DNA of 64,000 nucleotides from Candidatus Sericytochromatia bacterium (GCA_036676985.1 JAKFBU010000023.1:64001-128000); one strand, 5' to 3'. Positions 50,193 to 63,144 are shown, counted from the stretch's first letter. A program made the numbers and translations. Notes: generated from the sequence alone by a model not told the origin.

Positions 50193-51983
50193 TTGACCCA
50201 GACCGTTCAGAAGCCTTCGGCTCGCGCCAACGCCGGCGCGACCTTCGATTTGACCGCGCTCGAGACGTCCATCCGCGAGTTCAACCAGCGCGGCCAGGTG
50301 GGCGCCGATCCCGTGACCGCCCTGTACCAGAGCCGCCGCAGCGCCTGGTCGCTGTTCTCGCTCGGCCTGCGCGACGAGGAGATCGAGGCGCTTCGCTCCT
50401 ACCTCTTCCCCTACACCAAGCTGCCCGCGAGCACCGCGGACGCGCCCATCCCGACCCGCAACTTCATCGCGGGCGAGTGGCGCCTGCCCTCCAACGGCAA
50501 GCTCGTCACGCTGAACACCCTGTGGGACGACCGGATCCCCTTCGCCCAGGTGCCCGACAGCCAGCCCGAGGACGTGGAGCTCGCCGTCGCCTACGCCCAT
50601 GACTTCTGGAAGAGCCTGGAGTGGACCGAGGAGACGGTCCAGTACCGCAAGTTCGTCGTCAACAACTTCAGCCGCATCCTCGAGTACTACTACGAAGAGG
50701 TCATGGCCGAGATCCGGCACGAGATCCCCAAGACTCGCCTCGAGGGCGACAAGGACTACTGGGAGGCCAAGCGCGCGGCCGATCACATCGGCGGCAACGC
50801 GGACAAGGGCATGCTCGGCGAGTGGCTGCCCAACCAGGTAGACGGCCACTCCTACTGGAAGAACCCGTACCTCCCGGCGGGCGTGGTGGCGCTGGTGACG
50901 CCCATGAACTTCATCTACGGCATCCCCGTGATCCAGCTCATCGGCGCCTACATGGCCAACGCCCCGCTCATCTTCAAGGGCCACCCCTACGGAGCCGTCT
51001 CGAGCACCGTCATGATCCGCATGCTGCTCGCCGCGGGCGCCGATCCGCGCGCCGTCCAGAAGCTCGAGGGCTTCGGCGCGGGCATCTCGACCTTGGGCAC
51101 CGACGAGCGCGTCGCCGTCGTGTCGCTGACGGGCTCGGAGCACACGGCCCGCAAGATCCAGGAAGGCCGCGGCATCCGCACCCTCAAGTTCGAGGGCGGC
51201 GGCTGCAACTGGGCCTGGATCGACGACGGCTACTCGGACGAGGAGCTCCAGAAGATCGCCGTGCGGCTCACCTACAGCAAGCTCGGCTTCAGCTCGCACA
51301 AGTGCACGACCCTGCACGGCATCGCGGCCTCGCCCGCGACCCTCGCCAAGGTCATGGGCTACGTCAACGCCGAGATGGACACCTGGGAGATCCTGAACCC
51401 CGCCTTCACGGACAAGACCAAGGTGATCGGCCCCAACATGGTCCACAAGGCCCAGACCGTCACCAACATCCAGGAGGGCGCCAAGCAGGCCGGCCTCAAG
51501 ATCCTGCGCGAAGGCGGCAAGGTCTCGGGCAGCGCCTGCGGCTACAACGTGGCTTCGGACTACGCGGACCACTCCGAGGTCATCGCGCCGGTGATCGTCC
51601 AGGTCACGCCGGACGCCATGGTCACGGCGGACTGGGACGGCAAGGGCGAGCAGACGTTCCCCATCGCCACCACCGAGTTCTTCATGCCCATCCTCTGCGC
51701 CATGGAGATGGCGTCCTTCGAGGACTTCCTGCGGTTCTGCCTGATCACCAACCCGCACGACCTCGCCTGCTCCATCTGGACCCGCGACGATCGCAAGCTC
51801 CAGAAGGCCCGCAAGGTCATCGGCGGCATGCTCAAGGAGAATGACGGCACCGACTCGGCCCTCGAGTGGGAGGAGTTTGGCGCGTCGGGCATCGGCGGCT
51901 CCGGGAACACCGGCGTGGGCGATGCGGCGGCCACCATCGCCATGTTCTGCCGGCGCCAGAAGGGCCGTCACCTGGTCTTCTAG
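50193..51983 (+). CDS. Aldehyde dehydrogenase, divergent; probable P5C/glutamate-semialdehyde dehydrogenase (ALDH12-like)
   Basis: NFIAGEW, TPMNF, SLTGS, FEGGG (catalytic Glu), SHKCT (catalytic Cys), TEFFMP, FGASGIGGSG. Confidence 0.8.
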   Translation: MTQTVQKPSARANAGATFDLTALETSIREFNQRGQVGADPVTALYQSRRSAWSLFSLGLRDEEIEALRSYLFPYTKLPASTADAPIPTRNFIAGEWRLPSNGKLVTLNTLWDDRIPFAQVPDSQPEDVELAVAYAHDFWKSLEWTEETVQYRKFVVNNFSRILEYYYEEVMAEIRHEIPKTRLEGDKDYWEAKRAADHIGGNADKGMLGEWLPNQVDGHSYWKNPYLPAGVVALVTPMNFIYGIPVIQLIGAYMANAPLIFKGHPYGAVSSTVMIRMLLAAGADPRAVQKLEGFGAGISTLGTDERVAVVSLTGSEHTARKIQEGRGIRTLKFEGGGCNWAWIDDGYSDEELQKIAVRLTYSKLGFSSHKCTTLHGIAASPATLAKVMGYVNAEMDTWEILNPAFTDKTKVIGPNMVHKAQTVTNIQEGAKQAGLKILREGGKVSGSACGYNVASDYADHSEVIAPVIVQVTPDAMVTADWDGKGEQTFPIATTEFFMPILCAMEMASFEDFLRFCLITNPHDLACSIWTRDDRKLQKARKVIGGMLKENDGTDSALEWEEFGASGIGGSGNTGVGDAAATIAMFCRRQKGRHLVF

Positions 51984-51998
51984 GCCCGAGACCTCGCG

Positions 51999-52025
51999 AG
52001 GGGGCGCCCGATGGGCGCCCCCTTC
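51999..52025 (+). terminator. Terminator-like hairpin
   Basis: AGGGGGCGCCC-gat-GGGCGCCCCCT followed by TCTG. Confidence 0.65.
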
Positions 52026-52109
52026 TGCTGTCGGTGGGCGATCGCTCGGAACCCGACAGCGATCGCATCTTCATAGAACTTAACGTAGTTTCGTGATACA
52101 CTGACGCCC

Positions 52110-52496
52110 ATGAAGCCACTCAAGATTCTCGTCGCCGATGACGTCACGGACAACGCCGAAATCCTGAACATCATGCTGGGCCGCCTGGGCCACCAGGTCG
52201 TGACGGCCTCGGATGCCCCCACCGCCGAGCAACTGGCCCTGGAGCACGCCCCGGACGTCGTGTTCATGGACATCGTCATGCCCGGGGCCTTCGACGGGCT
52301 CGAGGCCATCCGCCGCCTGCGCCAGCGCCATGGCTTTCGTGGTATCATCGTCTGCCAGACGGCCCAGGCGAGCCCCGGAAACGTGGCCGAGGCCCTGACG
52401 GCCGGGGCCGACACCTGCCTGACCAAGCCGTTCAAGTACAAGGACGTGCTCAGTCTGATCGAGCGCTATACGGTGAGTTTCGCCAGAGAAGGATAG
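52110..52496 (+). CDS. Single-domain response regulator (CheY-like)
   Basis: ILVADD, PDVVFMDIVMP, QTA and LTKP: all active-site residues intact. Confidence 0.9.
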   Translation: MKPLKILVADDVTDNAEILNIMLGRLGHQVVTASDAPTAEQLALEHAPDVVFMDIVMPGAFDGLEAIRRLRQRHGFRGIIVCQTAQASPGNVAEALTAGADTCLTKPFKYKDVLSLIERYTVSFAREG

Positions 52497-53189
52497 ATGT
52501 GCGGACGCTTTAGCCTGTCGGTCTCCCTCGAGCTCCTGGAAGGGGCGTTCGAGCTGACGGGCCTCCCCGAGCACTCCCCCCGCTACAACGTCGCGCCCGC
52601 GCAGCCCGTGGCCCTCATCCGCCGCCCCACCCCCACTTCCGAGCGGCAGTGGGACCGGCTCAGCTGGGGCCTCTTGCCCGCCTGGGCCAAGGACCCCAAG
52701 GTCCATCGCCCCATCAACGCCCGGACCGACACGGTCGCCGAGAAGCCGACGTTCCGGTCCGCCTTCCGCCAGCGCCGGTGCCTGGTGCCGGCGGACGCCT
52801 TCTTCGAGTGGCAGACGCAGGGCAGCAAGAAGCAGCCCTTCTGCTTCCGGATGGCGGATCACGGCCTGTTCGCCTTCGGCGGCCTCTGGGAGCGCTGGGA
52901 GGGGCCAGAGGGCCAGGTCATCGAGACCTTCAACCTCTTGACCACCGAGCCCAACGAGCTGGTCGCCACGGTCCACGATCGCATGCCCGTCATCATCCGC
53001 CCGGCGGACTACGACCGCTGGTTGGACCCCGCTGTACGCGATCCGGCGGCCATCTTCGGCATGATCGGCTCCTACCCCGCCCGCGCCATGATCGCCTATC
53101 CGGTCGATCAACGGGTCGGCTCCGTGCAGTTCGACGCTCCGGAGTGCCTCGTGCCCATCGAGGCCAAGGGCCAGCTCTCCCTGTTTTGA
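52497..53189 (+). CDS. SRAP (SOS response-associated peptidase, YedK/HMCES) abasic-site protein
   Basis: N-terminal MCGRF, RYNVAP, WGL, INAR, RCLVPADAFFEW, HDRMP. Confidence 0.93.
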   Translation: MCGRFSLSVSLELLEGAFELTGLPEHSPRYNVAPAQPVALIRRPTPTSERQWDRLSWGLLPAWAKDPKVHRPINARTDTVAEKPTFRSAFRQRRCLVPADAFFEWQTQGSKKQPFCFRMADHGLFAFGGLWERWEGPEGQVIETFNLLTTEPNELVATVHDRMPVIIRPADYDRWLDPAVRDPAAIFGMIGSYPARAMIAYPVDQRVGSVQFDAPECLVPIEAKGQLSLF

Positions 53190-53260
53190 TCGCTTGACGC
53201 TAGCTGCGGCCTCGCCGCGGCGGTTATCCTGGTCCGGGAAGCCGCCACCCCGAGGTGCCC

Positions 53261-53683
53261 ATGGCCAAGGTGTTGTGCGTCAACGACTTCAAGCTCTACT
53301 CCGAGATGGTTTCCTTGATGCTCCAGCGCAAGGGAGGCCATGTCGTCCGCACCGAGATCGTGCCCTTCGCCCTGCGCGAGATCGAGGAGTTCGAGCCGGA
53401 CGTCATCGTCCTCAACATGGTGCGCAAGATGGAGGCCCTGCGCTCTCCGTTGGCCGATTTCTACGCGGAGGTCGACGGCGCACGGGCGTTCCGGGCGCTC
53501 GCCCAGCGCGAGGACCTGCACCGATACCCGATCATCCTCACGGCGATCGCCGTCGAAGAGCGCGAGGTCCCCAAGGTCCTCCCCTACCTCGCCTTCATCG
53601 AGGTCCCCGGCAAGATCGACCAGATGCTGGACATCATCGATCGCATCGTGGCCAGTCGGGGGTCGGATCTCGCCCCGGAGTAG
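53261..53683 (+). CDS. Pseudo-receiver domain protein A
   Basis: Receiver-like pattern (KVLCVND, PDVIVLN, VDG, PIILT, FIEVP) with Asp->Asn and Lys->Val. Confidence 0.75.
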   Translation: MAKVLCVNDFKLYSEMVSLMLQRKGGHVVRTEIVPFALREIEEFEPDVIVLNMVRKMEALRSPLADFYAEVDGARAFRALAQREDLHRYPIILTAIAVEEREVPKVLPYLAFIEVPGKIDQMLDIIDRIVASRGSDLAPE

Positions 53684-53701
53684 GCCGCGCGGAGGGTGGA
53701 G

Positions 53702-54124
53702 ATGGCCAAAGTGCTCTGCATCGGCGACTTCAGGCTCTACGCCGAGATGATCGCGCTGCTGCTCGAACAACAGGGGCCGCATGAGGTCGAGGTGGAGATC
53801 GTGCCCTTCGACCTCGACGTCATCGAGCGTTTCAAACCGGACGTCCTCATCGTCAACCTGGCGCGCAAGATCGAGGCGGTTGGCGCGCCCCTGCAGGACT
53901 TCTACACGGAAGTGGACGGCGCCAAGACGCTCAAGGCGCTGCAGACCAATCCCTCCCTGCAGCAATATCCCCTGCTCATCACGGCCATCGCCGTCGAGGA
54001 GCGGGAGCTGCCGAGGGGCTTCCGCTACCTCGCCTTCCTCGAGGTTCCGAGCAAGTTCGACTACCTGCTCGAAACCATCGACCGCATCGCCGCGAGCCGC
54101 GGCCACGGCCTCGCCCGCGAGTAG
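53702..54124 (+). CDS. Pseudo-receiver domain protein B (tandem paralogue)
   Basis: KVLCIGD, PDVLIVN, DFYTEVDGA, PLLIT, FLEVP; colinear with the preceding ORF. Confidence 0.75.
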   Translation: MAKVLCIGDFRLYAEMIALLLEQQGPHEVEVEIVPFDLDVIERFKPDVLIVNLARKIEAVGAPLQDFYTEVDGAKTLKALQTNPSLQQYPLLITAIAVEERELPRGFRYLAFLEVPSKFDYLLETIDRIAASRGHGLARE

Positions 54125-54222
54125 CGCCATCGGCCCAAGGAAGTTTGGGCAGCATGGGGTTAGGCAAATCTCTCGCCCTCCCGGACGATGGTGGGGACAT
54201 CCCGACCGATCGAGGAGGAGCG

Positions 54223-54498
54223 ATGGCGTTTCTCATCCCGCACAACGAGCCCTCCATGACCTTGACCCTGGACCTGCACGAGGCCCTGCTCATCGTGGAC
54301 GCGCTCATGGAGCGGCGCAAGGAGCGATTCGGGCAGCCCTTTCCGGACGGCGCCGAGGTCACCTTCGAGGACCTCGTCGCGGCGGTCGGCACCGAGGAGG
54401 ACGCCGAGGACTTCCTGGCGATGATGGAGCTCGAGTCGGCCGTCATCGAGGCCCTCCAGATCTTCGAGGAGGAGGACGACGACGCGGACGAGGAGTAG
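54223..54498 (+). CDS. Small very acidic hypothetical protein (91 aa)
   Basis: RBS GAGGAGGAG; D/E-rich with tail EEEDDDADEE. Confidence 0.72.
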   Translation: MAFLIPHNEPSMTLTLDLHEALLIVDALMERRKERFGQPFPDGAEVTFEDLVAAVGTEEDAEDFLAMMELESAVIEALQIFEEEDDDADEE

Positions 54499-54583
54499 GC
54501 CCGTGGGGTGGCGCTCCGGCTCTGATCGCGCTATCGTAGTAGCAGCCACAGGTTGAGCGCGACGAACGCCGAAAGGACCCCCC

Positions 54584-55795
54584 ATGAACGATCTGGCCAA
54601 CGCCCTCCACACGTCCGATTACATCGCCAAGGAAGAGCGCTTCGGCGCCCACAACTACCATCCGCTGGATCTCGTCATCGAGTCCGGCCAGGGCGTGTGG
54701 CTCTACGACGTCGAGGGCCGCCGCTTCATGGACTTCCTGAGCGCCTACTCCTCGGTCAACCAGGGCCACTGCCACCCGCGCATCCTCGAGGCCCTCAAGA
54801 GCCAGGCCGAGCGCGTGACCATCACCTCGCGCGCCTTCCGCAACGACCAGCTCCCGCTCCTCTACGAGCAGCTCGTCGAGCTGTCGGGCTTCGAGCGCGT
54901 GCTGCCCATGAACACGGGCGCCGAGGCCATCGAGACGGCCATCAAGGCGGTCCGCAAGTGGGGCTACCAGGTCAAGGGCATCCCCGCGGACCAGGCCGAG
55001 ATCATCGTGTGCGCCAACAACTTCCACGGCCGCACCACCACCATCACGGGCTTCTCGACCGAGCCGAGCTACCGGGAGGGCTTCGGCCCCTTCACGCCGG
55101 GCTTCAAGATCGTGCCCTTCGGCGATCTCGCGGCGCTCGAGGCGGCCATCACGCCCAACACCTGCGCCTTCTTGACCGAGCCCATCCAGGCCGAGGCGGG
55201 CGTGCTGATTCCGACCGCCGGCTACCTCAAGGGCGTGCGCGAGCTCTGCGACAAGCACAACGTGCTGTTCATTGCCGACGAGATCCAGACGGGCCTCGGC
55301 CGCACGGGCAAGCTCTTCGCCTTCGAGCACGAGGGCGTGCGGCCCGACGTGCTGGTGCTGGGCAAGGCGCTGTCGGGCGGCTTCTACCCGGTGTCGGCCA
55401 TGCTCGCCAACAGCGCGGTCATGGACGTGTTCAAGCCGGGTCAGCACGGCTCGACCTTCGGGGGCAATCCGCTGGGGTGCGCCGTCGCGCGCGCGGCGCT
55501 GTCGGTCCTGGTCGACGAGAAGCTGGTCGAGCGCTCCGCCGAGCGTGGCGCCTACTTCATGGACAAGCTCAAGAGCCTCAAGAGCCCCCTCATCAAGGAC
55601 ATCCGCGGCCGCGGCCTCCTGTTCGGCATCGAGCTCACGGAGTCGGCTCGCCCCTACTGCGAGCGCCTGATGGCCGAGGGGCTCCTCTGCAAGGAGACCC
55701 ACGACACCGTCATCCGCCTGGCGCCTCCGCTCGTCATCGGCCAGGAGGAGATCGACTGGGCCTTCGAGCGGATCAAGAAGGTCCTCGAAGCGTAA
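54584..55795 (+). CDS. rocD: Ornithine--oxo-acid aminotransferase
   Basis: [70 protein letters not shown]. Confidence 0.96.
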
Positions 55796-60603: not shown

Positions 60604-61095
60604 ATGAAGGCGATGGTGGGAACGGCGTTGGCACTCAGCCTGGCGCTGGTCGGATGCCAGGGCAACGAGAACCAGGGCGGTGGCGGCGGAACGACCGCCG
60701 ACAAGCAAACCCAGGCCGAACGGACTGACGAGCGCGCCGGCACGATGGGGCGCGATACGACCGAGAAGCTGCAGCAGCAGACCCACGACAACCTGCGGGA
60801 CGCCACCAAGAACGCCAGCGAGGCCCGGACCAGCGTGGCGAAGAAGGACTGGCCCGCGGCCAAGGACAACCTGGACGAGGTCCAGGACGATCTCAACAGC
60901 GTCGTCAAGGACATCCACCCGAGCAAGCAGGCCGAGGTCACCCAGATCCGGGCCATGGCGGACAAGGCGCATGCCTCCGTCAAGAACCACTCGGCCAACG
61001 CCCAGCAGGATATCGACAGGCTGGTCGCCGGCCTCAACAAGTTCACCACCTCCGAGGTCAAGGCAGGCGGCGGCAAGCCCACCCAGAAGAAGTAG
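60604..61095 (+). CDS. Helical lipoprotein of unknown function
   Basis: Lipobox LVG-C; RBS AGGAGG; helical-bundle-like mature part. Confidence 0.8.
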   Translation: MKAMVGTALALSLALVGCQGNENQGGGGGTTADKQTQAERTDERAGTMGRDTTEKLQQQTHDNLRDATKNASEARTSVAKKDWPAAKDNLDEVQDDLNSVVKDIHPSKQAEVTQIRAMADKAHASVKNHSANAQQDIDRLVAGLNKFTTSEVKAGGGKPTQKK

Positions 61096-61150: not shown

Positions 61151-61573
61151 CTAGGTCCGATAGAACCAGGCCGCCGCCTTGGTGTGGAAGAAGGCCACGA
61201 TCAGGCAGACGACGGTGATCGCGAGGCCGAAGGTCAACGCCCCCGAGATGCTCTCGGCGATGAACGGGGTGATGGCCATGCCGCCCACCACCTTGTTGGT
61301 GAGGGCCGTGGCGCCCAGGCCGTAGAGCCAGATGGGCGCGATGACGCCCAGCACGATGGTCGCCCACCACGCGACGTTCGCCTTGAAGGCGCCCATCATC
61401 CAGGACTTCATCGAGCGCTGGGGGAAGGCCAGGCCGAACCAGTACGATCCCATGAAGGTGAAGACGACGGTGAAGACGAAGAGCAGGATGAGCTGGCCCG
61501 CACCACCCGGATACCAGTAGCCGTGGTGCATGTAGCCGAGACCAGAGTTGGCGCTGGCGAGTGCGATCTGCAT
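61151..61573 (-). CDS. Small membrane protein (140 aa)
   Basis: 3-4 hydrophobic helices; RBS AAGGAGAG. Confidence 0.75.
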   Translation of the reverse strand: MQIALASANSGLGYMHHGYWYPGGAGQLILLFVFTVVFTFMGSYWFGLAFPQRSMKSWMMGAFKANVAWWATIVLGVIAPIWLYGLGATALTNKVVGGMAITPFIAESISGALTFGLAITVVCLIVAFFHTKAAAWFYRT

Positions 61574-62448: not shown

Positions 62449-63144
62449 ATGGATCGGGAGTTCAATCGACCGGAGGTCGGCACCGCGGCTGACGTCCGGC
62501 GGAGCATGATCATGGCGCGGGACGTCGCGCCCACCCACCCCGAGCTGATCGAGAACCTCGGCATCACCCGCCTGGAGAAGGTGGAGCCCTTCGGCTCCGA
62601 CCTCATCCACTGGGGGTCCATCTGGGGCGGCTTCTTCATGTACCTCGCCCTGACGCTGATCCTGGTGGCCGCGTCCATCTCGGTCGGCGCGCTCGCCGTG
62701 ACCCCGACCGGCGCGACCCCGCCCGCCGGGCAGGTGGCGGGAACCGTCGGCGTGACGATGGGCATCATCCTGCTGCTGGCGACCTTCGCCGGCGCGGTCC
62801 TGGGGGGCTGGACCTCCAACCTACGCTCCCGCTGGCCGGCCCTGGTCAACGGCCTCGTGTACGCCGCCCTGGTCGTCTGCGCGCCGGTCCTCATGACGAT
62901 CCTGCTCGGCATCCTGAGCGCCAGCGCCACGGCCGGAGCCGTCGCCCAGGCCCAGGCCACCCAGGGCAACGTCTTCATGCCGGGCCTCACCATGAACAGC
63001 GCCCTGGTGGACGCTGTCGCGGCCAATGTCGGCTGGTTCTCCCTGGGCTCGATCCTCATGCTGGTCGTCGGCGCCGTCGGCTACTTCGTCGGCATGCGCG
63101 CCCACCTGGCGGATCTCGGCCTCAAGCGCATGAACCGCACCTAG
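62449..63144 (+). CDS. Membrane protein (WGSIWGG-type, 4 TM)
   Basis: RBS AAGGAGG; soluble N-terminus, then IHWGSIWGGFF and four hydrophobic helices. Confidence 0.78.
   Translation: MDREFNRPEVGTAADVRRSMIMARDVAPTHPELIENLGITRLEKVEPFGSDLIHWGSIWGGFFMYLALTLILVAASISVGALAVTPTGATPPAGQVAGTVGVTMGIILLLATFAGAVLGGWTSNLRSRWPALVNGLVYAALVVCAPVLMTILLGILSASATAGAVAQAQATQGNVFMPGLTMNSALVDAVAANVGWFSLGSILMLVVGAVGYFVGMRAHLADLGLKRMNRT

Follow-up and report, generated by a model that had tools for sequence, protein, structure and literature searches.

A tandem pair of pseudo-receivers from a Candidatus Sericytochromatia bacterium belongs to an unnamed family with a conserved insert at the lost active site

What can a receiver-like protein do once its phospho-acceptor aspartate is gone? 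The question is raised by two adjacent genes, PR1 and PR2, in a 64,000-nucleotide stretch of a Candidatus Sericytochromatia bacterium genome (GCA_036676985.1 JAKFBU010000023.1:64001-128000), referred to below as the window. A first-pass annotation, made from the sequence alone, had described the two products as tandem pseudo-receivers sharing a novel insertion. Our analysis places them in an unnamed, structurally distinct, lineage-restricted pseudo-receiver family, pseudo-receivers as such being known and common, and we give a probability of about one half to the reading that they act as phosphorylation-independent adaptors or competitors modulating kinase-receiver signalling. The two genes are:

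53261..53683, + strand: PR1 (P0001), a 140-aa pseudo-receiver, assigned from its open reading frame (ORF) and translation, an upstream GAGG, an AlphaFold2 (AF2) model and structure matches
53702..54124, + strand: PR2 (P0002), a 140-aa paralogue of PR1, assigned from its translation, 57% identity, an upstream GGAGG and its tree placement

The open frames span 53255-53683 and 53696-54124 on the + strand, with ATG starts at 53261 for PR1 and 53702 for PR2. Each start is preceded by a Shine-Dalgarno-like motif (GAGG at 53252-53255, 5 nt ahead of the PR1 ATG; GGAGG at 53691-53695, 6 nt ahead of the PR2 ATG), and the intergenic gap is 18 nt. The proteins align without gaps over 140 residues, 80 of them identical (57%; E 8e-61), and the DNA is identical at 295/423 positions, in agreement with the earlier description of two colinear paralogues. 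All the motifs then quoted are present, namely PDVIVLN and PDVLIVN, FIEVP and FLEVP, RK.EA...PL.DFY.EVDG, and TAIAVEERE. The GC content at third codon positions (GC3) is 0.92 in PR1 and 0.91 in PR2, similar to that of the neighbouring genes and typical of the genome. Judged by these features, PR1 and PR2 are real genes of expressed type. A promoter and terminator scan of 51900-54700 returned none of either, the 67% GC content of the genome making such a scan uninformative. No RNA data set was listed for this sequence, three runs sharing small fractions (0.14-0.25) of the words sampled.

From a family alignment of 48 rows, AF2 produced a model of PR1 with a pLDDT of 91.2 and a pTM of 0.86. Its elements follow the order β1-α1-β2-α2-β3, a loop at 56-72 with a short helix, α3-β4, a loop at 97-110 and β5-α5; α4 is reduced to a three-residue helical turn inside the 97-110 loop. 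Foldseek placed the RR468, NtrC1, PhoB and DivK receivers of the PDB first for this model (E 1.6e-6; target TM 0.72), and 206 of the best 500 hits had E ≤ 0.001. In a VIA-align comparison with 48,161 chains, KdpE was the best match (Z 12.9, rmsd 2.4 Å, 113 aligned residues), and nearly all of the best 50 were receivers, accompanied by a few cobalamin-binding and CpaE/TadZ domains. At the sequence level, the family profile matched RR468 among PDB sequences at E 1.9e-9, and hhalign of the family with a set of six true receivers that these genomes encode, the window receiver at 52110 among them, gave a probability of 96.3% (E 1.8e-9, 126 columns). Structure prediction, structure matches and profile alignment thus bear out the receiver fold first proposed for the pair, and PR1 and PR2, as modelled, keep the receiver (CheY-like) β-α fold.

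At four of the five catalytic positions the residue is gone from PR1 and PR2, namely the Asp, the Lys, the Thr and the first acidic residue. The phospho-acceptor position and the insert that follows it map to:

53414..53416, + strand: codon AAC, Asn52 of PR1, at the phospho-acceptor position, aligned to RR468 D53 and to D54 of the window receiver
53423..53461, + strand: β3-α3 insert of PR1, RKMEALRSPLADF, residues 55-67 with Arg55 first, opposite a 13-column gap in true receivers
53864..53902, + strand: insert of PR2, RKIEAVGAPLQDF, residues 55-67, in the same columns as the PR1 insert

In the alignment of the family profile with RR468, N52 lies opposite the phospho-acceptor D53 and the family carries a 13-residue insertion. 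In the hhalign alignment with true receivers, N52 faces D54, V115 faces K106 and P116 faces P107, with the PR1 insert again opposite a gap. Both alignments put T94 one position ahead of the canonical Thr/Ser, the column of which is occupied by Ala95, an assignment in which a one-residue register error is possible. Only D9 of the acidic pair is kept, position 8 being Asn in PR1 and Gly in PR2. The replacement of the phospho-acceptor Asp by Asn and of the Lys by Val, originally read from the motifs, is confirmed by the alignments to RR468 and to the six true receivers; the Ala at the canonical Thr position and the loss of α4 are additions to the first-pass annotation. On sequence grounds, we infer that PR1 and PR2 would be incapable of acting by Asp phosphorylation.

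We then tabulated these columns over 66 non-redundant family members, which fall into three subfamilies described below (24 of the 140-type, 8 of the 156-type and 34 of the Zn-type). The phospho-acceptor column holds Asn in 19, Ser in 3 and Thr in 2 of the 140-type sequences, with no Asp; it holds Pro in 7 and Ser in 1 of the 156-type, and mostly Gly, Ala or Val in the Zn-type. The Lys column is hydrophobic in 66/66 members. The insert, expected from the outset to be conserved in homologues, is present in all 66 relatives compared and has the same length across the three subfamilies. Near-invariant residues are R55 (65/66), which occupies the D+3 position, G73 and P116 (both 66/66), and prolines are also conserved at P46 (65/66), P90 (64/66) and P104 (63/66). 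T94 is present in 22/24 of the 140-type members and not in the other subfamilies.

With the single-domain receivers RR468, DivK and CheY (PF00072), PR1 and PR2 share the fold, detectable homology and a stand-alone form of ~120-140 aa, and they keep D9, the 'DG' glycine that opens α3 and the Pro after the Lys position. Unlike those receivers, they are without the Asp, the Lys and the canonical Thr, and they have the 13-residue insert, the near-invariant Arg and an α4 that is unwound in the model. Receiver-like proteins without the Asp have been termed aspartate-less receivers (ALRs), and those in which one or more of the five catalytic residues are missing pseudo-receivers (PMC12632262, PMC4395418). 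By these definitions, PR1 and PR2 are aspartate-less pseudo-receivers, with the Asp, Lys, Thr and first acidic residue all lost. The Asn at the Asp position corresponds to Asn53 of RitR (PMC4395418), and the pair diverges from receivers mainly in the β3-α3 and β4-α4 regions, the loops in which pseudo-receivers differ most from receivers and which are named as the hot spots of this class (PMC12632262). In contrast, RitR and most studied ALRs have a DNA-binding output domain, whereas members of the PR family are stand-alone, fused to a zinc ribbon or fused to a kinase; moreover, no curated model was found to have the family insert, its D+3 Arg or the loss of α4.

That the family is new, as had been suggested, is supported by the curated collections, the pair staying below the cut-off of every Pfam and NCBIfam model. 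Response_reg (PF00072) scores PR1 at 19.4 bits (E 0.0012), below the gathering cut-off of 30.2 bits, and leaves PR2 without a match; the NCBIfam search of both proteins returned only far-sub-threshold receiver matches. Across the family, only 5/48 members are matched by PF00072 at E ≤ 0.01, and none of the seven family copies in the window genome (G000) is among its 55 PF00072 matches. The minor Pfam pseudo-receiver families PF06490, PF21155, PF21194, PF21695, PF21714 and PF22368 did not appear in an hmmscan of PR1 and PR2 against Pfam-A at E ≤ 1, nor among the listed 25/33 families matched by the 48 members. The nearest clusters in the ESM Atlas were generic Response_reg (score 0.96) and one unnamed cluster. 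In the limited literature collection searched, no paper was found on pseudo-receivers in Sericytochromatia or on the PR1/PR2 family; what it contained on the subject were papers on pseudo-receivers in general.

The family is also rare. A word-indexed search of 5.8 billion clusters recovered 12 proteins including the query, and PR2, used as the query of an exhaustive phmmer search over 1.84 billion representatives, found 42 proteins at E ≤ 1e-3, of which 19 passed 1e-10 and 4 passed 1e-30. Hits in named genome records came from two Candidatus Sericytochromatia bacterium metagenome-assembled genomes (MAGs) and one Cyanobacteria bacterium MAG. A scan of phylum genomes at E ≤ 1e-12, in which 10 candidates per genome were scored, matched 12/401 genomes, all within the window's own order (12/27) and none among the 374 sampled outside it; other phyla were covered only by a pattern scan tuned to the 140-aa type. 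As far as sampled, the family thus appears restricted to one order. The pseudo-receivers of KaiA and CikA, with which the first-pass annotation compared the pair, are likewise phosphorylation-independent receiver-fold modules of the same phylum-level group and are cited as quinone or redox sensors (PMC12632262). Neither KaiA nor CikA came up among the matches listed (~43 from Foldseek, 50 from VIA-align) or among the Pfam hits, and such lists do not rule out the families that they omit.

A maximum-likelihood tree of 54 domains, its bootstrap not fully settled, separates three clades with support of 96/89 (140-type), 99/96 (156-type) and 95/87 (Zn-type). The seven copies in the window genome comprise the tandem pair, one 156-aa form and four forms of 197-210 aa with a C-terminal CPxC...CPxC zinc ribbon. 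In the model of a Zn-type copy (pLDDT 91.8), the same N-terminal domain is followed by a beta-rich domain. The sister subfamilies are only 23-31% identical to PR1. The view of the family as stand-alone therefore holds for PR1 and PR2, which are separate proteins, but not throughout, as one sister subfamily is fused to the zinc ribbon and one protein to a kinase.

To model the PR1:PR2 complex, we used a 20-row alignment for each chain, three runs and three controls. The ipSAE values were 0.81, 0.71 and 0.77 (median 0.77) for the pair and 0.00, 0.32 and 0.00 for the controls; the pass mark is reached by 116/157 solved complexes and 2/215 mismatched pairs, counts that are rough here owing to the custom alignments. 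The runs share at least 98% of their contacts, with a partner pLDDT of at least 84. The interface is symmetric and is formed on both chains by residues 9-13, 15-17, 19-20 and 23-24 (β1-α1 loop and α1), 54-64 (end of β3, R55 and the insert), 96-99 and 114-123 (β5-α5 loop). Residues 54-55, 57 and 59-64 of PR1 and 54-55, 57 and 60-63 of PR2 are those contributed around the insert. The predicted interface is therefore the pseudo-active-site face and not the α4-β5-α5 face, which is used by most observed pseudo-receiver dimers, with CsgD, FleQ, RitR and VpsT as exceptions (PMC12632262). The modelling supports a symmetric PR1:PR2 dimer through a remodelled active-site face; since PR1 and PR2 hardly differ in the residues that form the interface, it cannot separate a heterodimer from homodimers.

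The history of the pair bears on the same point. PR1 groups with P0003 (96/90) and PR2 with P0004 (96/94), both metagenomic relatives, the branch lengths being 0.13 for PR1 and 0.38 for PR2. This pairing indicates a duplication older than the split from the carriers of P0003 and P0004, and by this tree both paralogues have been retained since before that split. P0004 is PR1-like over residues 1-75 (58 vs 45 identities) and PR2-like over residues 76-140 (43 vs 37), a signal too weak for a recombinant to be called. Seven further loci of the 140-type, each with 1 kb or more of flanking sequence on either side (L008, L009, L010, L031, L055, L056 and L058), carry a single copy and no tandem, and no tandem is seen in the sequence available at the short loci L057 and L059. 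Single-copy relatives point to a homodimer as the ancestral state. Of the heterodimer suggested earlier, the contact between PR1 and PR2 thus gains support from the complex model (0.77 against 0.32 for the best control), whereas its hetero character does not, homodimers being equally plausible and no tandem being seen in the sequence available at the nine other 140-type loci.

Receivers dock on the helical bundle of histidine kinases through α1 and the β5-α5 face, as in HK853-RR468. In the mechanism that we propose for PR1 and PR2, the loss of Asp, Lys and Thr would rule out switching by Asp phosphorylation, and the remodelled face (α1 and the β1-α1, β3-α3, β4 and β5-α5 loops) would serve as a protein-protein surface. 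This face would form symmetric dimers, PR1:PR2 and/or homodimers, and could also engage a kinase, making the proteins adaptors or competitors. We put this reading at roughly 0.5, because the face is the one with which receivers dock on kinases and because members of the sister subfamilies are found next to PAS histidine kinases, in one chain with such a kinase, or paired with a true single-domain receiver. The loci concerned include:

L007:1438-1908, - strand, and L007:1903-2370, + strand: 156-type pseudo-receiver and receiver pair on contig C26 of G000; also at L032, L034 and L040
L005:1255-2070, - strand, and L052:4779-5594, - strand: clustered genes for Fe-alcohol dehydrogenase, PAS-HisKA-HATPase kinase and Zn-type pseudo-receiver on contig C1 of G000; also in relatives, at L039, L047 and L048

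All four genomic loci of the 156-type are divergent from an orthologous true single-domain receiver, these receivers being 53-82% identical to one another and 36-42% identical to the receiver at 52110. The association is tighter than any seen for the window pair. For the Zn-type, a PAS-HisKA-HATPase gene is adjacent or one gene off in 8/19 loci, a lower bound given the ad hoc gene calls; against a background of 86 HisKA matches in the 4.68 Mb of G000 (~1 per 54 kb), this exceeds chance. Four of the eight belong to a single clade with the Fe-alcohol dehydrogenase, kinase and pseudo-receiver arrangement, so that the independent cases are fewer; the cluster is present in four genomes of the family-level group. 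On contig C1 of G000, the kinase and pseudo-receiver ORFs overlap when the latter is taken at its longest (GTG at 2070), the start aligned with the family (ATG at 1881) lying ~100 nt past the kinase stop. Kinases are in marked excess in this genome, with 86 HisKA and 55 Response_reg matches.

P0028 (733 aa, metagenomic) is a natural fusion, a single pseudo-receiver-Zn-ribbon-PAS-PAS-HisKA-HATPase chain. Its kinase half had matches on 32 contigs of G000, among which the kinase adjoining the Zn-type copy ranked only 12th, and thus pointed to no specific kinase lineage. Among 140-type loci, a metagenome contig (L059:858-2653) encodes a receiver, a 268-aa sensor-less HisKA/HATPase core and the pseudo-receiver in one direction with short gaps. 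These gene contexts support a tie between the wider family and two-component genes in general. The nearest functional precedent is ShkA of Caulobacter, whose pseudo-receiver binds the HisKA domain and controls autophosphorylation (PMC12632262, PMC7010744), and P0028 likewise joins pseudo-receiver and kinase in a single chain. The likeness is functional and does not come from sequence comparison: the ShkA domain sits inside a hybrid kinase, and c-di-GMP bound at its α4-β5-α5 surface releases it, whereas PR1 and PR2 are separate polypeptides with a degenerate α4.

The surroundings of the window pair itself are of another kind. The genes run in the order TetR regulator, alpha/beta hydrolase, aldehyde dehydrogenase, receiver, SRAP (SOS-response-associated peptidase), PR1, PR2 and acidic ORF, followed by a class-III aminotransferase and, on the opposite strand, a DAO oxidoreductase. 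Those nearest to the pair are:

50193-51983: aldehyde dehydrogenase, 596 aa; its Pfam match starts only at residue 116, leaving an unassigned N-terminal extension
52110..52496, + strand: intact single-domain receiver, two genes upstream of PR1 (Pfam Response_reg 78.6 bits; DD, D54, T and K106)
52497-53189, + strand: SRAP, its ATG abutting the stop codon of the receiver
54145-54498 (or from the ATG at 54223): acidic ORF, small and very acidic, GC3 0.90, as is typical of the genome

PR1 begins 71 nt past the SRAP stop. The abutting receiver and SRAP genes make an odd couple. The acidic ORF at 54145-54498 matched no Pfam family and has no relative at other family loci or elsewhere in the genome, a lack that excludes it as a conserved partner of PR1 and PR2. 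Three further ORFs, at 60604-61095 (+), 61151-61573 (-) and 62449-63144 (+), have high GC3 and no Pfam family.

Several observations weigh against a role in kinase-receiver signalling. No kinase lies within about 15 kb of the pair and no histidine kinase between positions 34 and 64 kb of the window, and the order receiver-SRAP-PR1-PR2 is not kept, the SRAP genes of three family-level relatives being without these neighbours. Most other 140-type loci adjoin non-signalling genes: L055 and L056 share an ABC permease, an Rce1-like protease, the pseudo-receiver, a gene without assignment and SLT; L008 has the same set with an inserted C92 peptidase; at the truncated L057 only the Rce1-like gene is seen ahead of the pseudo-receiver; and L009, L031 and L058 have unrelated neighbours. 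Support from context comes mainly from the sister subfamilies, at 23-31% identity to PR1, and the related loci are kin, so that their counts overstate independence. The complex score is a measure of model confidence to which resemblance to receiver dimers of solved structure may contribute, and the test is also passed by close cousins of a true partner. Finally, where Arg55 stands with respect to D9 and E100 is something that we infer.

A bolder form of the adaptor reading, to which we attach only tentative belief, casts the family as a new kind of trans-acting 'third component' in two-component signalling, made up of pseudo-receiver dimers. Here the insert-bearing face would be the kinase-docking face, and exchange between monomer and dimer, or between PR1 and PR2, would gate sensor-less or orphan kinases, with the zinc-ribbon and kinase fusions as tethered versions.

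A different explanation removes the kinase altogether. In a small-molecule sensor, a pocket formed by D9, Arg55, the insert and E100 would bind a ligand, for instance a nucleotide second messenger or a quinone, and the ligand would be in control. The insert and the near-invariant Arg do fall in the α2 / β3-α3 loop / α3 region often used by ligand-binding pseudo-receivers, according to passages of PMC12632262. We consider this unlikely, as we identified no motif for ligand binding, the predicted protein-protein interface takes in the conserved residues of the insert, and the loci have no conserved metabolic neighbour.

The decoy role for the receiver at 52110 raised in the first-pass annotation, in which PR1 and PR2 would compete with this receiver for its kinase, fares worse and strikes us as improbable. 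The four genes from receiver to PR2 do share the + strand with short gaps, the 156-type is always paired with a receiver 36-42% identical to this one, and competitor models for pseudo-receivers are discussed in PMC12632262. Nevertheless, the specific tie is unsupported: the window has no kinase between 34 and 64 kb, the SRAP genes of the three relatives have neither receiver nor pseudo-receiver alongside, and the 71-nt gap together with the unrelated SRAP gene separates the receiver from PR1. In the same-genus genome G001 (87% complete), we found no 140-type copy and, with this query, no SRAP match, from which absence is not concluded.

It is slightly harder still to credit an adaptor switched on Ser/Thr, for instance on T94, by a Hanks-type kinase. 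The restriction of T94 to the 140-type, where 22/24 members have it, would suit such a switch, as would L010, where the gene starts 20 nt after that of a 1467-aa Pkinase-AAA_16-TPR-GAF protein. L010 is a single locus, however, no Hanks-type kinase adjoins the window pair, and T94 lies inside strand β4 in the model. The least credible alternative, that the proteins are decaying receiver relics without present function, would account for the loss of 4/5 catalytic positions and for Pfam scores under the cut-off, but sits poorly with intact ORFs of genome-typical GC3, with R55, G73, P104 and P116 near-invariant over three subfamilies and 66 sequences, with both paralogues kept since before the P0003/P0004 split, and with confident models for PR1 and a Zn-type copy.

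How bacterial pseudo-receivers are switched is described as an open question (PMC12632262), and the PR family offers a compact test case for it: small, confidently modelled proteins with a defined insert and a single near-invariant Arg where the active site has been lost, an unusual predicted dimer through the active-site face, and natural zinc-ribbon and kinase fusions. They come from a little-studied, non-photosynthetic relative of cyanobacteria. Should the remodelled face not bind kinases, the family would still provide a clean new annotation for proteins missed by curated models; if the face does bind them, it would represent a way to regulate phosphotransfer without phosphorylation.

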